Assembly (NCBI RefSeq): GCF_022846255.1
Contig: NZ_AP025682.1
DNA: 64,000 nucleotides
Reading direction: 5' to 3' (one strand)
Origin: Escherichia coli
GTDB lineage: Bacteria > Pseudomonadota > Gammaproteobacteria > Enterobacterales > Enterobacteriaceae
Positions 1-46,493 of this stretch are shown here, one piece after another (positions within the stretch are counted from its first letter, which is position 1; every line of letters begins with the position of its first letter). The notes below the pieces were generated by a model, which was not told the DNA's origin, ran no database searches, and saw only the letters and a program-made list of their open reading frames with translations. The position numbers were made by a program, and so were the translations under genes.

Positions 1-708
1 GCGGTAATCACCCGCTTTGGTGTCGCGCCCTTTATCTGCACCCTCGGTATGATGTACGTCGCCCGTGGCTCTGCCCTGCTGTTTAATGATGGCAGCACTT
101 ACCCCAATCTCAACGGCATGGAGGCACTGGGCAACACGGGTTTCGCCACCCTTGGTTCTGGCACGTTTTTAGGCGTTTATTTGCCAATCTGGCTGATGAT
201 TGGCTTTTTGATTTTAGGCTACTGGATCACGACTAAAACGCCGCTCGGTCGTTATATCTATGCCATTGGTGGCAATGAATCTGCCGCGCGACTGGCAGGC
301 GTACCCATCGTAAAAGTCAAAGTGTTCGTCTATGCGTTCTCCGGATTATGCGCCGCATTTGTCGGTTTGATTGTTGCCTCGCAGCTGCAAACCGCTCACC
401 CAATGACCGGCAATATGTTCGAAATGGATGCTATCGGTGCCACGGTTCTTGGTGGAACTGCGCTGGCAGGTGGTCGGGGACGTGTCTCTGGCTCGATTAT
501 CGGTGCCTTTGTCATTGTCTTCCTCGCCGATGGCATGGTGATGATGGGGGTCAGTGATTTCTGGCAAATGGTCATTAAAGGCCTCGTTATCGTCACCGCC
601 GTGGTAGTCGATCAGTTCCAGCAAAAATTGCAAAACAAAGTCATTTTGATGCGTCGCCATGAAGAAAAGATGGCCGCCGCACCTGCCGTAAAACCGCTTT
701 CCAGTTAA
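1..708 (+). CDS. ABC-type sugar transporter permease, C-terminal part (5' end lies outside the window)
   Basis: Frame 1 is open from position 1 to the TAA at 706-708. Hydrophobic TM-rich protein with an RbsC/AraH-family-like C-terminal region. Not present at this position in K-12 as recalled. Confidence 0.7.
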   Translation, partial: AVITRFGVAPFICTLGMMYVARGSALLFNDGSTYPNLNGMEALGNTGFATLGSGTFLGVYLPIWLMIGFLILGYWITTKTPLGRYIYAIGGNESAARLAGVPIVKVKVFVYAFSGLCAAFVGLIVASQLQTAHPMTGNMFEMDAIGATVLGGTALAGGRGRVSGSIIGAFVIVFLADGMVMMGVSDFWQMVIKGLVIVTAVVVDQFQQKLQNKVILMRRHEEKMAAAPAVKPLSS

Positions 709-721
709 TTAACATCATTCC

Positions 722-743
722 GCCGGGCATTAAATTGCCCGGC
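722..743 (+). terminator. GC-rich hairpin between permease and first dehydrogenase (gccgggca-ttaaat-tgcccggc); possible weak terminator or attenuator
   Basis: Perfect 8-bp inverted repeat seen directly; the downstream T-tract is weak (ttataca). Confidence 0.3.
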
Positions 744-761
744 TTATACAGGGGAAAAAAT

Positions 762-1559
762 ATGCAACGTAATTTTCAGGGTAAGACTGTAGTTATTACC
801 GGGGCATGCCGGGGAATTGGGGCCGGGATCGCTGAACGCTTCGCCCGCGATGGCGCAAATCTGGTGATGGTTTCTAACGCTGCACGCGTGCATGAAACTG
901 CTGAGCAACTGCGCCAATGTTATCAGGCTGACATTTTGTCATTAGAAGTCGATGTGACAGATGAAGCGCAAGTACAGGCACTCTATGAACAAGCGGCTGC
1001 ACGTTTTGGCAGCATCGATGTTTCCATTCAGAATGCAGGCATTATCACCATCGATTATTTTGATCGAATGCCGGCTGCTGATTTCGAAAAAGTGCTGGCG
1101 GTGAACACTACGGCAGTCTGGCTCTGCTGCCGGGAAGCAGCCAAATATATGGTGAAACAAAATCACGGCTGCCTGATCAACACCTCTTCTGGCCAGGGAC
1201 GTCAGGGGTTTATCTATACCCCACACTATGCAGCCAGCAAAATGGGTGTGATCGGCATTACGCAAAGCCTGGCGCACGAGTTAGCGCAGTGGAATATCAC
1301 TGTTAACGCCTTCTGCCCTGGTATTATCGAAAGCGAAATGTGGGACTACAACGACCGCGTATGGGGAGAAATTCTCAGTACCGATGACAAGCGTTATGGC
1401 AAAGGCGAGCTTATGGCGGAATGGGTGGAAGGTATTCCGATGAAGCGTGCCGGTAAACCTGAAGATGTTGCCGGACTGGTTGCCTTCCTCGCCTCTGACG
1501 ATGCGCGTTATCTCACCGGTCAAACCATCAACATCGACGGCGGCCTGATTATGTCGTAA
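762..1559 (+). CDS. Short-chain dehydrogenase/reductase, sorbitol-6-phosphate dehydrogenase-like
   Basis: ATG at 762 preceded by a purine-rich RBS (cagggga). Rossmann motif TGACRGIGAG and catalytic Y-x3-K (YAASK). The ORF-track start at 735 lies inside the upstream hairpin and is unlikely. Confidence 0.8.
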   Translation: MQRNFQGKTVVITGACRGIGAGIAERFARDGANLVMVSNAARVHETAEQLRQCYQADILSLEVDVTDEAQVQALYEQAAARFGSIDVSIQNAGIITIDYFDRMPAADFEKVLAVNTTAVWLCCREAAKYMVKQNHGCLINTSSGQGRQGFIYTPHYAASKMGVIGITQSLAHELAQWNITVNAFCPGIIESEMWDYNDRVWGEILSTDDKRYGKGELMAEWVEGIPMKRAGKPEDVAGLVAFLASDDARYLTGQTINIDGGLIMS

Positions 1560-1591
1560 TGCCCCTGCGGGCTACTAAGAGAGATATCAAA

Positions 1592-2377
1592 ATGATCGCA
1601 AAAGATTTTGCTCAACAATTGTTTGATCTCCACGATCGCGTCGCCTTTGTCACTGGCGCAGGTAGCGGTATCGGACAAATGATCGCTCTGGCTTTAGCCA
1701 GCGCAGGCGCACGAGTGGTGTGTTTTGATCTACGGGAAGATGGCGGACTCAAAGAGACGGTTAATCATATCGAAGCACTTGGCGGACAAGCCTTGTATTA
1801 CACGGGCGATGTTCGGGAATTGAGAGATCTTCGCGCAGCAGTCGCTCTGGCAAAAACACATTTTGGTCGTCTGGATATTGCCGTAAACGCCGCTGGAATC
1901 GCTAACGCAAACCCGGCGCTGGAGATGGAAAGCGAGCAATGGCAACGCGTTATCGATATCAACCTGACTGGTGTGTGGAATTCCTGTAAGGCGGAAGCCG
2001 AGTTAATGGTAGAGAACGGAGGCGGCTCGATTATAAATATTGCGTCAATGTCCGGGATTATCGTCAATCGCGGTCTGGAACAGGCTCACTACAACAGCTC
2101 CAAAGCAGGCGTGATTCATTTATCTAAAAGTCTTGCGATGGAATGGGTGAGTAAAGGGATCCGTGTGAACTCAATCAGTCCAGGATATACCGCAACACCA
2201 ATGAATACCCGACCTGAAATGGTGCATCAGACTCGGGAGTTTGAAATCCAGACGCCGATTCAGCGGATGGCGAAAGTGGAAGAGATGGCGGGTCCAGCGC
2301 TGTTCCTTGCCAGCGATGCGGCGTCGTTCTGCACTGGTGTTGATCTGGTGGTCGATGGTGGTTTTGTCTGCTGGTAA
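1592..2377 (+). CDS. Short-chain dehydrogenase/reductase, gluconate 5-dehydrogenase / KduD-like
   Basis: ATG at 1592 with RBS aagagag upstream. Motif TGAGSGIG and catalytic Y-x3-K (YNSSK). The ORF-track start at 1559 overlaps the stop of the upstream gene. Confidence 0.8.
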   Translation: MIAKDFAQQLFDLHDRVAFVTGAGSGIGQMIALALASAGARVVCFDLREDGGLKETVNHIEALGGQALYYTGDVRELRDLRAAVALAKTHFGRLDIAVNAAGIANANPALEMESEQWQRVIDINLTGVWNSCKAEAELMVENGGGSIINIASMSGIIVNRGLEQAHYNSSKAGVIHLSKSLAMEWVSKGIRVNSISPGYTATPMNTRPEMVHQTREFEIQTPIQRMAKVEEMAGPALFLASDAASFCTGVDLVVDGGFVCW

Positions 2378-2486
2378 AAATGGTTTCGCCCGCAGCCATC
2401 ACTGACCGCGGGCGAAAGTGTAAAGCAGGTGCCTTACCACCCTGACCTGACAACCGGATATGCGGGGATTGCTCCCCGCACAACGG

Positions 2487-2639
2487 CTACTTCTTCGGTT
2501 CGTAAGCGAGAACAACCTTAAACTCAATATTACGTTCCTTTACGGTAAACTCACACAGCGAGTCTCCGACCAGAAGCGTAAATCCCAGCACCGTTAAACA
2601 CAGCACTATGACTGCCACAAGGGCATATTTCGTCAGCAT
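2487..2639 (-). CDS. hokE: Hok-family type I toxin (50 aa), copy 1
   Basis: Protein [50 protein letters not shown] matches the Hok/Gef family; single TM helix; cat (ATG on the reverse strand) at 2637-2639. Confidence 0.85.
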
Positions 2640-2739
2640 GTTTATATTGCCTCCATGCGAAGAAGGGACTACCATCCAAATTGTTCAGGTTTGGGTAGGT
2701 AGCCCCAAGGTTGATAGAAATATCGTCCTGGGGCTTCAT
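2551..2739 (-). CDS. mokE: mok (modulator of killing) leader ORF overlapping the hok start, copy 1
   Basis: 62-aa ORF in a different frame overlapping the 5' end of hok, the standard hok/sok architecture; translation not verifiable from sequence. Confidence 0.5.
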
Positions 2740-2990
2740 CTTTCCAGACCTCAGAGTAAACCTGAAACCGGAAAGCTTCAGGCACCCGCAGTTATCTTAC
2801 CCTTCCTTAGCAAAATAGCTGTTTATTTATACAGTGAGTCCTGTTTAGGACTTTTCACCTGTATTATCGCCCATGCCAGTAAAACGAAATCGCCCGCAGC
2901 CATCTCTGACTGCGGGCGAAAGTGTAAAGCAGGTGCCTTACCATCCTGACCTGACAACCGGATATGCGGGGATTACTCCCCGCACAACGG

Positions 2991-3143
2991 CTACTTCTTC
3001 GGTTCGTAAGCGAGAACAGCCTTAAACTCAATATTACGTTCCTTTACGGTAAACTCACACAGCGAGTCTCCGACCAGAAGCGTAAATCCCAGCACCGTTA
3101 AACACAGCACTATGACTGCCACAAGGGCATATTTCGTCAGCAT
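2991..3143 (-). CDS. hokE: Hok-family type I toxin (50 aa), copy 2
   Basis: Same as copy 1 except Val to Ala at residue 42 (EFKAV); this version matches the K-12 HokE sequence as recalled. Confidence 0.85.
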
Positions 3144-3243
3144 GTTTATATTGCCTCCATGCGAAGAAGGGACTACCATCCAAATTGTTCAGGTTTGGGT
3201 AGGTAGCCCCAGGGTTGATAGAAATATCGTCCTGGGGCTTCAT
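3055..3243 (-). CDS. mokE: mok leader ORF, copy 2
   Basis: Overlapping ORF as in copy 1, with a Leu to Pro difference at residue 11. Confidence 0.5.
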
Positions 3244-3579
3244 CTTTCCAGACCTCAGAGTAAACCTGAAACCGGAAAGCTTCAGGCACCCGCAGTTATC
3301 TTACCCTTCCTTAGCAAAATAGCTGTTTATTTATACAGTGAGTCCTGTTTCGGACTTCTCATTTAATCAACTGAAGCTGAACCCGTTTTTTTCTGCATGC
3401 CTCAATCGTCAAAATTCTTCGCCGCCAGCCAGCTCTGCCATAACTTGTCACATTGCAAAAGTAGCCAAATTGCTTCAGTCACAATCAGTTCTCCATCACC
3501 AAAAAAAGAAACATTCCAGAACTTCCGCATCTCACCCAGCCGCTCCCACTTCTATACTGAATAGAAAACGCCAACATAA

Positions 3580-4707
<1,128 letters not shown>

Positions 4708-38123: not shown

Positions 38124-38310
38124 GCCGGATGCGGCGTGAACGCCTTATCCGGCCTACCGTTCCAACACCGCCTGTAGGCCTGATAAGATGCGCCAGCATC
38201 GCATCAGGCATGGTGTGCCGATTGCCGCATGCGGCGTGAACGCCTTATCCGGCCTACCGTTCCAACACCGACTGTAGGCCTGATAAGACGCGCCAGCATC
38301 GCATCAGGCT
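38124..38310. repeat. BIME: two tandem units of about 101 bp, each an inverted REP pair
   Basis: gcc(g/a)(g/c)atgcggcgtgaacgccttatccggcctac ... ctgtaggcctgataaga(t/c)gcgccagcatcgcatcaggc occurs twice in direct repeat. Confidence 0.85.
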
Positions 38311-46410: not shown

Positions 46411-46452
46411 GTCATACCACTCGCCTGATTATTTTTAGCTATGTTGGATTTT

Positions 46453-46479
46453 GCCACGGTTTATACCGTGGCTTTTTTT
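46453..46479 (+). terminator. Rho-independent terminator after allE
   Basis: gccacggt-ttat-accgtggc followed by ttttttt. Confidence 0.7.
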
Positions 46480-46493
46480 GTAGTCAATTCAGG

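Follow-up and report, generated by a model that had tools for sequence, protein, structure and literature searches.

Results

Two hok/mok modules in direct repeat beside ybdK

Comparison of the window (the whole stretch of 64,000 nucleotides of Escherichia coli DNA that was analysed) with itself revealed a direct repeat whose two copies begin 504 bp apart. When its two 472 bp modules (Table 1) were compared in register, mismatches were found at positions 2401, 2407, 2440, 2471, 2515, 2708, 2847 and 2854, corresponding to an identity of 98.3%, which is far beyond chance. The original prediction had described tandem units of about 504 bp that differ by at least eight substitutions; the spacing and the substitutions, exactly eight over the 472 bp, were borne out, whereas the repeated unit proved to be the 472 bp module followed by an unrepeated spacer, no second copy of which was found right of unit 2. 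Tandem Repeats Finder reported no repeat in this region because its longest period, 500 bp, is shorter than the spacing. Sub-threshold Rfam matches to Hammerhead_1 and mir-1990 were set aside as chance matches to hairpins, the former being caused by the small hairpin at the outer edge of the module.

Table 1. Positions of the genes, predicted RNAs and RNA elements of the hokE pair in the window.
Feature	Position	Strand	Basis
hokE-type module 1, from the terminator to the hairpin upstream of the hok promoter	2386-2857	-	In-register repeat with 2890-3361
Inter-unit spacer, 32 bp, 'type A'	2858-2889	.	Single occurrence in the window
hokE-type module 2	2890-3361	-	100% identity to the single-copy locus of MS20657, including the ybdK flank to 3700
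hok-1 CDS, 50 aa, V42	2487-2639	-	ORF list; Pfam HOK_GEF, E=3e-8
hok-2 CDS, 50 aa, A42; same protein as RefSeq WP_000956465.1 'HokE'	2991-3143	-	ORF list
mok-1 ORF, 62 aa, other frame, overlaps hok-1	2551-2739	-	ORF list
mok-2 ORF, 62 aa, overlaps hok-2	3055-3243	-	ORF list
Predicted full-length hok-1 mRNA, 404 nt	2384-2787	-	RF01794 match 2631-2787, 84.0 bits
Predicted full-length hok-2 mRNA, 404 nt	2888-3291	-	RF01794 match 3135-3291, 86.2 bits
Tac-like 5' element of mRNA-1, GGGUGCCU, predicted to pair with 2427-2434	2780-2787 (unit 2: 3284-3291)	-	MFE fold
Fbi-like 3' fold-back element of mRNA-1, AGGCACCU	2427-2434 (unit 2: 2931-2938)	-	MFE fold
Predicted hok-1 terminator hairpin, then U-rich tail	2384-2417	-	Terminator scan; -27.2 kcal/mol, z -6.4
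Predicted hok-2 terminator hairpin	2890-2919	-	Terminator scan; -26.8 kcal/mol, z -7.6
Predicted Sok-1, unpaired 5' end and stem-loop	2683-2743	+	Homology to annotated K-12 sokE b4835; fold -21.7 kcal/mol
Predicted Sok-2, 5' tail identical to that of Sok-1	3187-3247	+	Homology to K-12 sokE
Candidate Sok-1 promoter, TTGCCT, 17 nt, TACCAT	2647-2675 (unit 2: 3151-3179)	+	By eye; below the promoter-scan threshold
Small hairpin AGTCCT-GTTT-AGGACT, promoter-distal edge of module 1	2839-2854 (unit 2: 3343-3358)	.	Read directly from the sequence

Each module carries an intact hok frame and a mok frame that starts upstream of hok and overlaps its start. These frames, their coordinates and the V42/A42 (Hok) and L11/P11 (Mok) exchanges between the units had all been read correctly, as judged from the ORF list. 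The two Hok proteins, whose start codons lie 504 bp apart, are 98% identical and end in ...(V/A)VLAYEPKK. Their match to Pfam PF01848 (HOK_GEF) spans the model from end to end (positions 1-42 of 42), and the NCBIfam Hok family models are their best matches, yet with scores below the curated cut-offs. Identity to HokE of K-12 amounts to 49/50 residues for the hok-2 product and 48/50 for the hok-1 product, and the V42 allele occurs also in unit 2 of strain C11. The mok frame varies among hokE units: in some it has 62 aa and overlaps hok, in others it runs for 83 aa in the frame of hok, and a third form of 22 aa stops short of hok. Since mok is not conserved, an effect of L11/P11 on the Mok protein is unlikely, and any influence of the exchange would come from the base that it alters in the Sok-target stem. 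Transcription of hokE is reported for K-12, where TadA edits codon 46 of the mRNA (PMC5630033), and the UACG editing site is kept in both hok copies of the window.

To the right of unit 2 lie ybdK (start at 3589, 228 bp beyond the unit), ybdJ, ybdF, nfsB and ybdG, the same synteny that surrounds hokE/sokE in K-12. To the left, an SDR gene that belongs to an accessory island and is found in 628 of the 5,426 complete E. coli genomes ends at 2377, 8 bp before unit 1, so that the pair does sit, as had been proposed, at the boundary between the ybdK block and non-K-12 DNA. A match to strain SCU-111 in two pieces had suggested that the 32 bp spacer is a copy of the entD-side flank. This was rejected: three unrelated left flanks emerged from the alignment, shuffle tests gave no significant similarity of the spacer to the flank on the entD side or to that of the island (p>=0.2), and inspection by eye revealed nothing like it in the flank towards ybdK. 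Exactly the same spacer lies between both hokE genes of strain NRG857c, and that of SCU-111 is identical as well.

Predicted folding of the hok mRNAs

Both units matched the Rfam model of the hok mRNA leader (RF01794) on the hok strand, over its full length and above the gathering score of 59; the first base of the match was taken as the 5' end of the mRNA. The minimum free energy (MFE) folds of the resulting transcripts reached -179.7 kcal/mol for hok-1 and -176.1 kcal/mol for hok-2 (z of -8.3 and -8.4 against shuffled controls), and in both of these in silico folds nucleotides 1-8 are paired with nucleotides 354-361. Apart from one G-U wobble, this 5'-3' helix is retained in 25 of 25 hokE units, and, being invariant, it draws no support from covariation. 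Across the same units the 132 consensus pairs are 99.5% paired, three of them being compensatory. The closed 'fold-back' architecture predicted for the hok mRNAs is that known from the hok mRNA of plasmid R1.

The terminator hairpins had been described as having arms of 7 bp in unit 1 and 9 bp in unit 2. This is true of the plus strand of the DNA and does not hold for the RNA: on the transcribed minus strand they contain 14 pairs in unit 1 and 13 in unit 2, with similar energies (Table 1), and the unit 1 terminator is not the weaker one because the change at 2407 gives a G-U pair on that strand. Six of the eight differences between the units fall within the predicted hok transcript. Those at 2401 and 2471 lie in hairpin loops, and those at 2407 (terminator), 2515 (the V42/A42 codon, in a predicted helix) and 2708 (Sok-target stem) turn a Watson-Crick pair into a G-U pair on the mRNA strand. 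The sixth, at 2440, falls where the predicted folds of the two units diverge; a covariation of this position with the cluster of changes in the Sok tail was looked for, and nothing consistent was found.

A consensus promoter scan of positions 2300-3600 detected no sigma-70-like promoter. A candidate -10 element, TAAGAT, was read by eye ahead of each hok 5' end (2794-2799 in unit 1) and is, like the candidate Sok promoter, a weak match.

The predicted antisense RNA and its variable 5' tail

The ends of the predicted Sok RNAs were carried over from the annotated 60 nt sokE of K-12, to which 43 nt of the predicted Sok are 95-98% identical; both stretches are predicted to fold into a stable stem-loop behind an unpaired 5' end, and a candidate promoter was recognized by eye only. 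The predicted transcription of Sok from the forward strand agrees with the original prediction, and the homology to sokE moves its position about 20-30 nt to the left of the ranges proposed there (2700-2770 and 3204-3274). In the fold of Sok-1, about 10 nt are unpaired at the 5' end, and 18-19 nt precede the main stem.

In the alignment of 25 hokE units, the most variable stretch comprises the 18-20 nt complementary to the predicted 5' tail of Sok, with a diversity (pi) of 0.15-0.19 as compared with 0.04 overall, and eight tail variants were distinguished. Directly after it come 50 columns without any variation among the 25 units; they contain the candidate Sok promoter as well as the ribosome-binding site and the start of hok. 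In 11 of 11 other arrays the tail differs between the copies at 2-7 positions; in the window pair it is identical. This tail, designated T1, differs from that of K-12 at 5 of 18 positions. A T1-specific 49-mer matched 2,392 genomes at 2,397 places, so that at most five of the 5,426 complete genomes can hold two T1 units. By these sequence comparisons the window array appears mildly unusual, in that both of its copies carry the same predicted Sok 5' tail.

hokE arrays in complete E. coli genomes

A usable frequency count was obtained with a query limited to the conserved core, from the hok ORF to the Sok promoter, against the 5,426 complete E. coli genomes. It matched 5,374 of them and gave 7,981 places in 5,379 records (mean 1.48 places per record, median 1, maximum 4); of 39 rows drawn at even intervals from the ranking, 14 had two or more places. 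From these place counts and the 39-row sample, rather than from a per-genome table, we estimate that roughly 35-45% of complete E. coli genomes carry more than one copy of hokE. Two other counts were discarded. For a 1,401 bp query, 3,371 genomes reached a coverage of >=80%, a number that is unsafe as a count of two-copy genomes, since a single hokE copy can align to each unit in turn and the two pieces be joined. The approximately 102 complete genomes that match a 91-mer specific for the junction with the type A spacer (at 98-100%) do not give the frequency of arrays, as other arrays use a different spacer.

All nine multi-copy genomes that were opened contain tandem arrays at the hokE site, between entD (or the SDR island) and ybdK, with each copy annotated as hokE by RefSeq. 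Two copies are present in FDAARGOS_536, SCU-111, FDAARGOS_1373, SK1144, C11, F3398, ST69 and NRG857c, and three in MFDS1022581, so that the arrays range from two to at least three copies; in FDAARGOS_1373, an IS150 is inserted in one of them. The closest full-length match to the window array among the 5,426 complete genomes is 98.2% identical, and the exact combination of island, T1 unit, spacer A and T1 unit is absent from them.

Local multiplication of hok genes has been reported before. Ten per cent of Hok genes were found in 'islets' of 2-6 copies that stem from local duplication, the share being 13.5% for the chromosomal hok genes of Escherichia (bioRxiv 10.1101/2025.08.07.668861), and the window pair falls under the definition of an islet used there, namely at least two hok genes of the same cluster less than 2 kb apart. 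Tandem repetition is in general a recognized trait of type I toxin-antitoxin loci (PMC2887945). The tandem arrangement of hokE is thus common in E. coli, annotated by RefSeq and already published, and is in itself ordinary.

Relatives of the two units

A scan of one genome per species located hokE pairs spaced by 502-503 bp in three other lineages, namely E. whittamii, Escherichia sp. MOD1-EC7003, which has the SDR island too, and the divergent 'E. coli' SCPM-O-B-8794; E. albertii and Escherichia sp. E1V33 have a single copy. An exact 24-mer of the window spacer gave no match when one genome per species was searched. The spacers of the three paired lineages form a related group with a 'type B' spacer found in many E. 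coli, and share only the last ~11 nt with the type A spacer of the window. As the three-copy array contains an A-like spacer followed by a B-type spacer, two-copy arrays of both types may have arisen by deletion.

In E. whittamii and SCPM-O-B-8794, lineage-specific substitutions are common to both copies, and a neighbour-joining tree of hokE units did not separate 'position 1' from 'position 2' copies, for which reason simple orthology by position in the array was dropped. Together, the shared substitutions and the indifference of the tree to position point to gene conversion and recombination between hokE units. Judged from these comparisons, the hokE array is old, widespread and polymorphic, and neither private to this strain nor a recent duplication.

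The window array itself is, by its pattern of identities, a mosaic, recombinant haplotype. From unit 2 to position 3700 in the ybdK flank, the window does not differ from the single-copy hokE locus of MS20657 (100% identity), and 99.9% identity extends over the next 4 kb; unit 2 is 100% identical also in D8. Unit 1 with its spacer is 99.4% identical to the corresponding segment of FDAARGOS_536, and the island to the left of unit 1 reaches at most 98.2-98.9% identity to anything in the complete genomes. Since unit 2 equals a single-copy allele found elsewhere, the eight differences are those between two alleles circulating in the species. A fresh duplication in situ would have a junction composed of the present flanks and two copies that are each other's closest relatives; neither is seen here. 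Of the tandem duplication of a hok/mok/sok locus that had been proposed, the head-to-tail pair, of hokE type, therefore stands, and in view of the identities to MS20657 and FDAARGOS_536 it is neither recent nor private.

Discussion

We consider it very probable that the window holds two copies of the chromosomal hokE/sokE type I toxin-antitoxin module, arrayed at the site where this module normally lies, mosaic in origin and most likely working by a mechanism like that of plasmid R1. The hokE-type identity follows from the HOK_GEF domain, the two RF01794 matches, the synteny with K-12 and the naming of hokE by RefSeq.

The mechanism of hok/sok of plasmid R1 is well established. If the copies of the window behave likewise, a weakly transcribed and very stable hok mRNA of ~400 nt would be made in a closed form, in which the 3' fold-back element pairs with the 5' end, leaving mok and hok untranslated and Sok unable to bind. 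Slow trimming of the 3' end would open the mRNA again, and the short, unstable Sok, transcribed from the opposite strand over the mok start, would then pair with the opened mRNA via its 5' tail, block translation of mok and thereby of hok, and trigger cleavage by RNase III. Once Sok is exhausted, the 50 aa Hok would enter the inner membrane and collapse the membrane potential. The array as such is an old feature of several Escherichia species, with 1 to at least 3 copies that appear to be reshuffled by homologous recombination and gene conversion between units.

With hok/mok/sok of R1, the window locus shares the Hok/Gef toxin, the overlapping mok, the predicted closure of the mRNA between its 5' and 3' parts and the RF01794 leader, and an antisense RNA over the mok start is predicted here too; identity to what we take to be the R1 Hok sequence is 41% over 41 aa. 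Unlike R1, the locus is chromosomal and tandem and has no replicon to stabilize, and post-segregational killing is not expected of it. K-12 MG1655 hokE/sokE (b4415/b4835) resembles the window in its position beside ybdK and in the mRNA architecture, and differs in having one copy only, with IS186B inserted beyond the hok stop codon and ahead of the 3' fold-back/terminator region, and a mok frame of 83 aa that runs in frame into hok, as opposed to the overlapping 62 aa of the window. Arrays of toxin and antisense RNA modules in one intergenic region are also formed by ldrABC/rdl, ibs/sib and zorO-orzO/zorP-orzP, which have other toxin families and other RNA control. For Ibs/Sib, discrimination between copies has been demonstrated experimentally and non-cross-reacting Sib/Ibs are known; in the hokE arrays, such discrimination is only suggested by the variable Sok tail. 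As in the hokE arrays, the copy number of these ldr, ibs and zor modules varies between E. coli strains (PMC2887945, PMC11264685).

The closest described system is that of the adherent-invasive E. coli NRG857c, for which Hok-2.1 (577,301-577,453), 'homologous to hokE', and Hok-2.2 (577,805-577,957), a 'duplication of hok-2.1', were reported 504 bp apart (Bustamante et al., Front Microbiol 2020, PMC7232551). They occupy the same entD-hokE-hokE-ybdK locus with the same spacing and exactly the same 32 bp spacer as in the window, and the two arrays are 97.6% identical over 1,035 bp. In contrast to the window, NRG857c lacks an SDR island at the site and encodes the same Hok protein twice. The alignment of its ybdK-proximal unit shows K-12-type indels, so that this unit probably carries a K-12-type Sok tail, whereas both units of the window have T1.

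Whether the hok copies of the window are active in vivo is uncertain; chromosomal copies might serve persistence, phage exclusion or the stabilization of adjacent DNA, or have no role at all. According to Pedersen and Gerdes (1999), in the statements quoted in PMC7232551 and bioRxiv 10.1101/2025.08.07.668861, chromosomal hok loci do not stabilize plasmids, and the K-12 copies were called inactive. The modules might accordingly be decayed relics that are neither expressed nor toxic now, like the hok loci of K-12, a view that would fit the absence of post-segregational killing by the chromosomal loci tested earlier (as quoted in the same two sources), the failure of the consensus scan to find a promoter and the drift of the mok frame. 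We regard it as unlikely: the window has no IS insertion, unlike K-12 (IS186B) or FDAARGOS_1373 (IS150), and the ORFs, the ribosome-binding site, the 5'-3' pairing and the terminator are intact and conserved across species. Furthermore, K-12 HokE is reported to be toxic when over-expressed (bioRxiv 10.1101/2025.08.07.668861), and the K-12 hokE mRNA is both transcribed and edited (PMC5630033).

The origin of the pair can be explained in other ways, none of which we find at all convincing. That the SDR/ABC island carried unit 1 with it and landed next to a resident hokE, which would imply two independent acquisitions, is very unlikely, as arrays follow directly after entD without any island in SCU-111, C11, ST69, F3398, MFDS1022581 and NRG857c, and the identical spacer A occurs in the island-free SCU-111 and NRG857c. 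These genomes outweigh, in our opinion, the proximity of the island end to unit 1 (8 bp), the presence of two hokE copies in three of three island-bearing genomes inspected, and the fact that the island and unit 1 have nearest relatives other than those of unit 2.

A recent tandem duplication in the strain's own lineage, with the eight differences accumulated since, appears more improbable still. The units of the window do differ less (1.7%) than those of the other arrays examined (2.5-5.8%); however, unit 2 together with 340 bp of flank shows 100% identity to the single-copy allele of MS20657 and unit 2 is unchanged in D8 as well, unit 1 and its spacer are 99.4% identical to unit 1 of another strain, the exact spacer is found in NRG857c and the junction, at 98-100%, in ~100 other genomes, the spacer is not composed of the present flanks as a fresh junction would be, and hokE pairs exist in other Escherichia species. 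An assembly artefact, in which a single hokE locus was written twice or joined as a chimera, is scarcely credible even though repeats of ~500 bp can be mis-assembled from short reads and the exact island, T1, spacer A and T1 combination is absent from the 5,426 complete genomes, since the variant set of each unit matches real alleles elsewhere and two- and three-copy arrays occupy the hokE site in many independently finished genomes, which upholds the earlier argument from the divergence of the units.

Within the preferred reading of a mosaic hokE array, the Sok tail deserves attention. The copies of an array might be kept different in the 18 nt tail, such that each Sok controls only its own hok mRNA, and the window pair would then be a rare 'homotypic', cross-regulating array. 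We offer this tentatively and think it rather less than likely; descent from a few array haplotypes could equally produce the pattern of Sok tails without any selection. It is nevertheless the only lead for the specialist, the question being whether cross-talk between the copies of an array is prevented by their variable Sok tail.

For work on hok genes, near-identical copies of hokE confuse read mapping, qPCR and pangenome counts. For the chromosome of the strain, the pair provides 472 bp of homology for deletion, gene conversion and exchange of flanks at the edge of an accessory island. For E. coli in general, the single, IS-disrupted hokE of K-12 is not representative of the species, as wild E. 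coli commonly carry intact arrays with at least two copies.

Boundaries and copy number of the hokE units

All hokE units share two fixed boundaries regardless of the sequence lying outside them, and in every unit the promoter-distal edge carries the small hairpin AGTCCT-GTTT-(A/C)GGACT, to which a sub-threshold Hammerhead_1 match was also traced. In the three-copy array of MFDS1022581, the spacer between units 1 and 2 is A-like and that between units 2 and 3 is of type B, suggesting that both kinds of two-copy array derive from a longer one by deletion. A further unit variant, seen in both SCU-111 and FDAARGOS_1373, is an AAACCTG duplication within the leader of the unit 2 hok mRNA, in its first hairpin.

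Sequences flanking and interrupting the units

Unit 1 of the window starts 8 bp past the end of an accessory island that was found in 628 of the 5,426 complete E. coli genomes; Escherichia sp. MOD1-EC7003 carries it as well. The island copy in the window is at most 98.2-98.9% identical to the copies in other genomes, whereas the ybdK side reaches 99.9-100% identity to MS20657, a strain with single-copy hokE. The hokE units were themselves repeated targets of insertion sequences, namely IS150 in FDAARGOS_1373 and IS186B in K-12. Further along, the 16-40 kb part of the window (cusS, nfrA/nfrB, sfm fimbrial genes, cysS) is collinear with genomes in which this part carries no prophage.

Features of the window and of the comparison loci (L-numbers); positions without an L-number refer to the window
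Feature	Position	Strand	Remark
Accessory island	1-2377		ABC-transporter permease gene and two SDR oxidoreductase genes
UACG TadA editing motif	2501-2504; 3005-3008	-	Hok codon 46 plus next base
mok ORFs	2551-2739; 3055-3243	-	compared with L001-L014
Antisense ORF, 113 aa	2608-2949	+	opposite strand to hok
Antisense ORF, 84 aa	3112-3366	+	opposite strand to hok
Small hairpin	2839-2854; 3343-3358		promoter-distal edge of units
tRNA-Arg(TCT)	24828-24904	-
naRNA4 (REP-derived) elements (two)	38177-38254; 59520-59597	-	Rfam, above gathering score
STnc480 sRNA	46417-46483	-	Rfam, above gathering score
IS186B in K-12	L002 4008-5352		between hok stop codon and 3' fold-back element
IS150 in FDAARGOS_1373	L003 1462-2831		unit 1 broken upstream of hok ORF, in mok/Sok region
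7-nt tandem duplication	L003 3061-3538 (FDAARGOS_1373); L004 3503-3912 (SCU-111)	+
Three-copy hokE array, MFDS1022581	L012 1402-2877

Reading frames of the units

Both window copies retain UAC followed by G at Hok codon 46, the position of the Tyr46-to-Cys editing reported for the K-12 hokE mRNA (PMC5630033); the V42/A42 difference between them lies four codons upstream, inside a predicted helix. The two plus-strand ORFs are probably spurious gene calls, since their RefSeq counterparts, annotated as 'hypothetical protein', are mostly flagged as frameshifted or partial. The mok frame varies among the hokE units compared, occurring in three forms: a 62-aa frame that overlaps hok, an 83-aa frame that continues in phase into hok (the type found in K-12 hokE), and a 22-aa frame that ends before hok. 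It is only the translation of mok, and not its product, that can be conserved.
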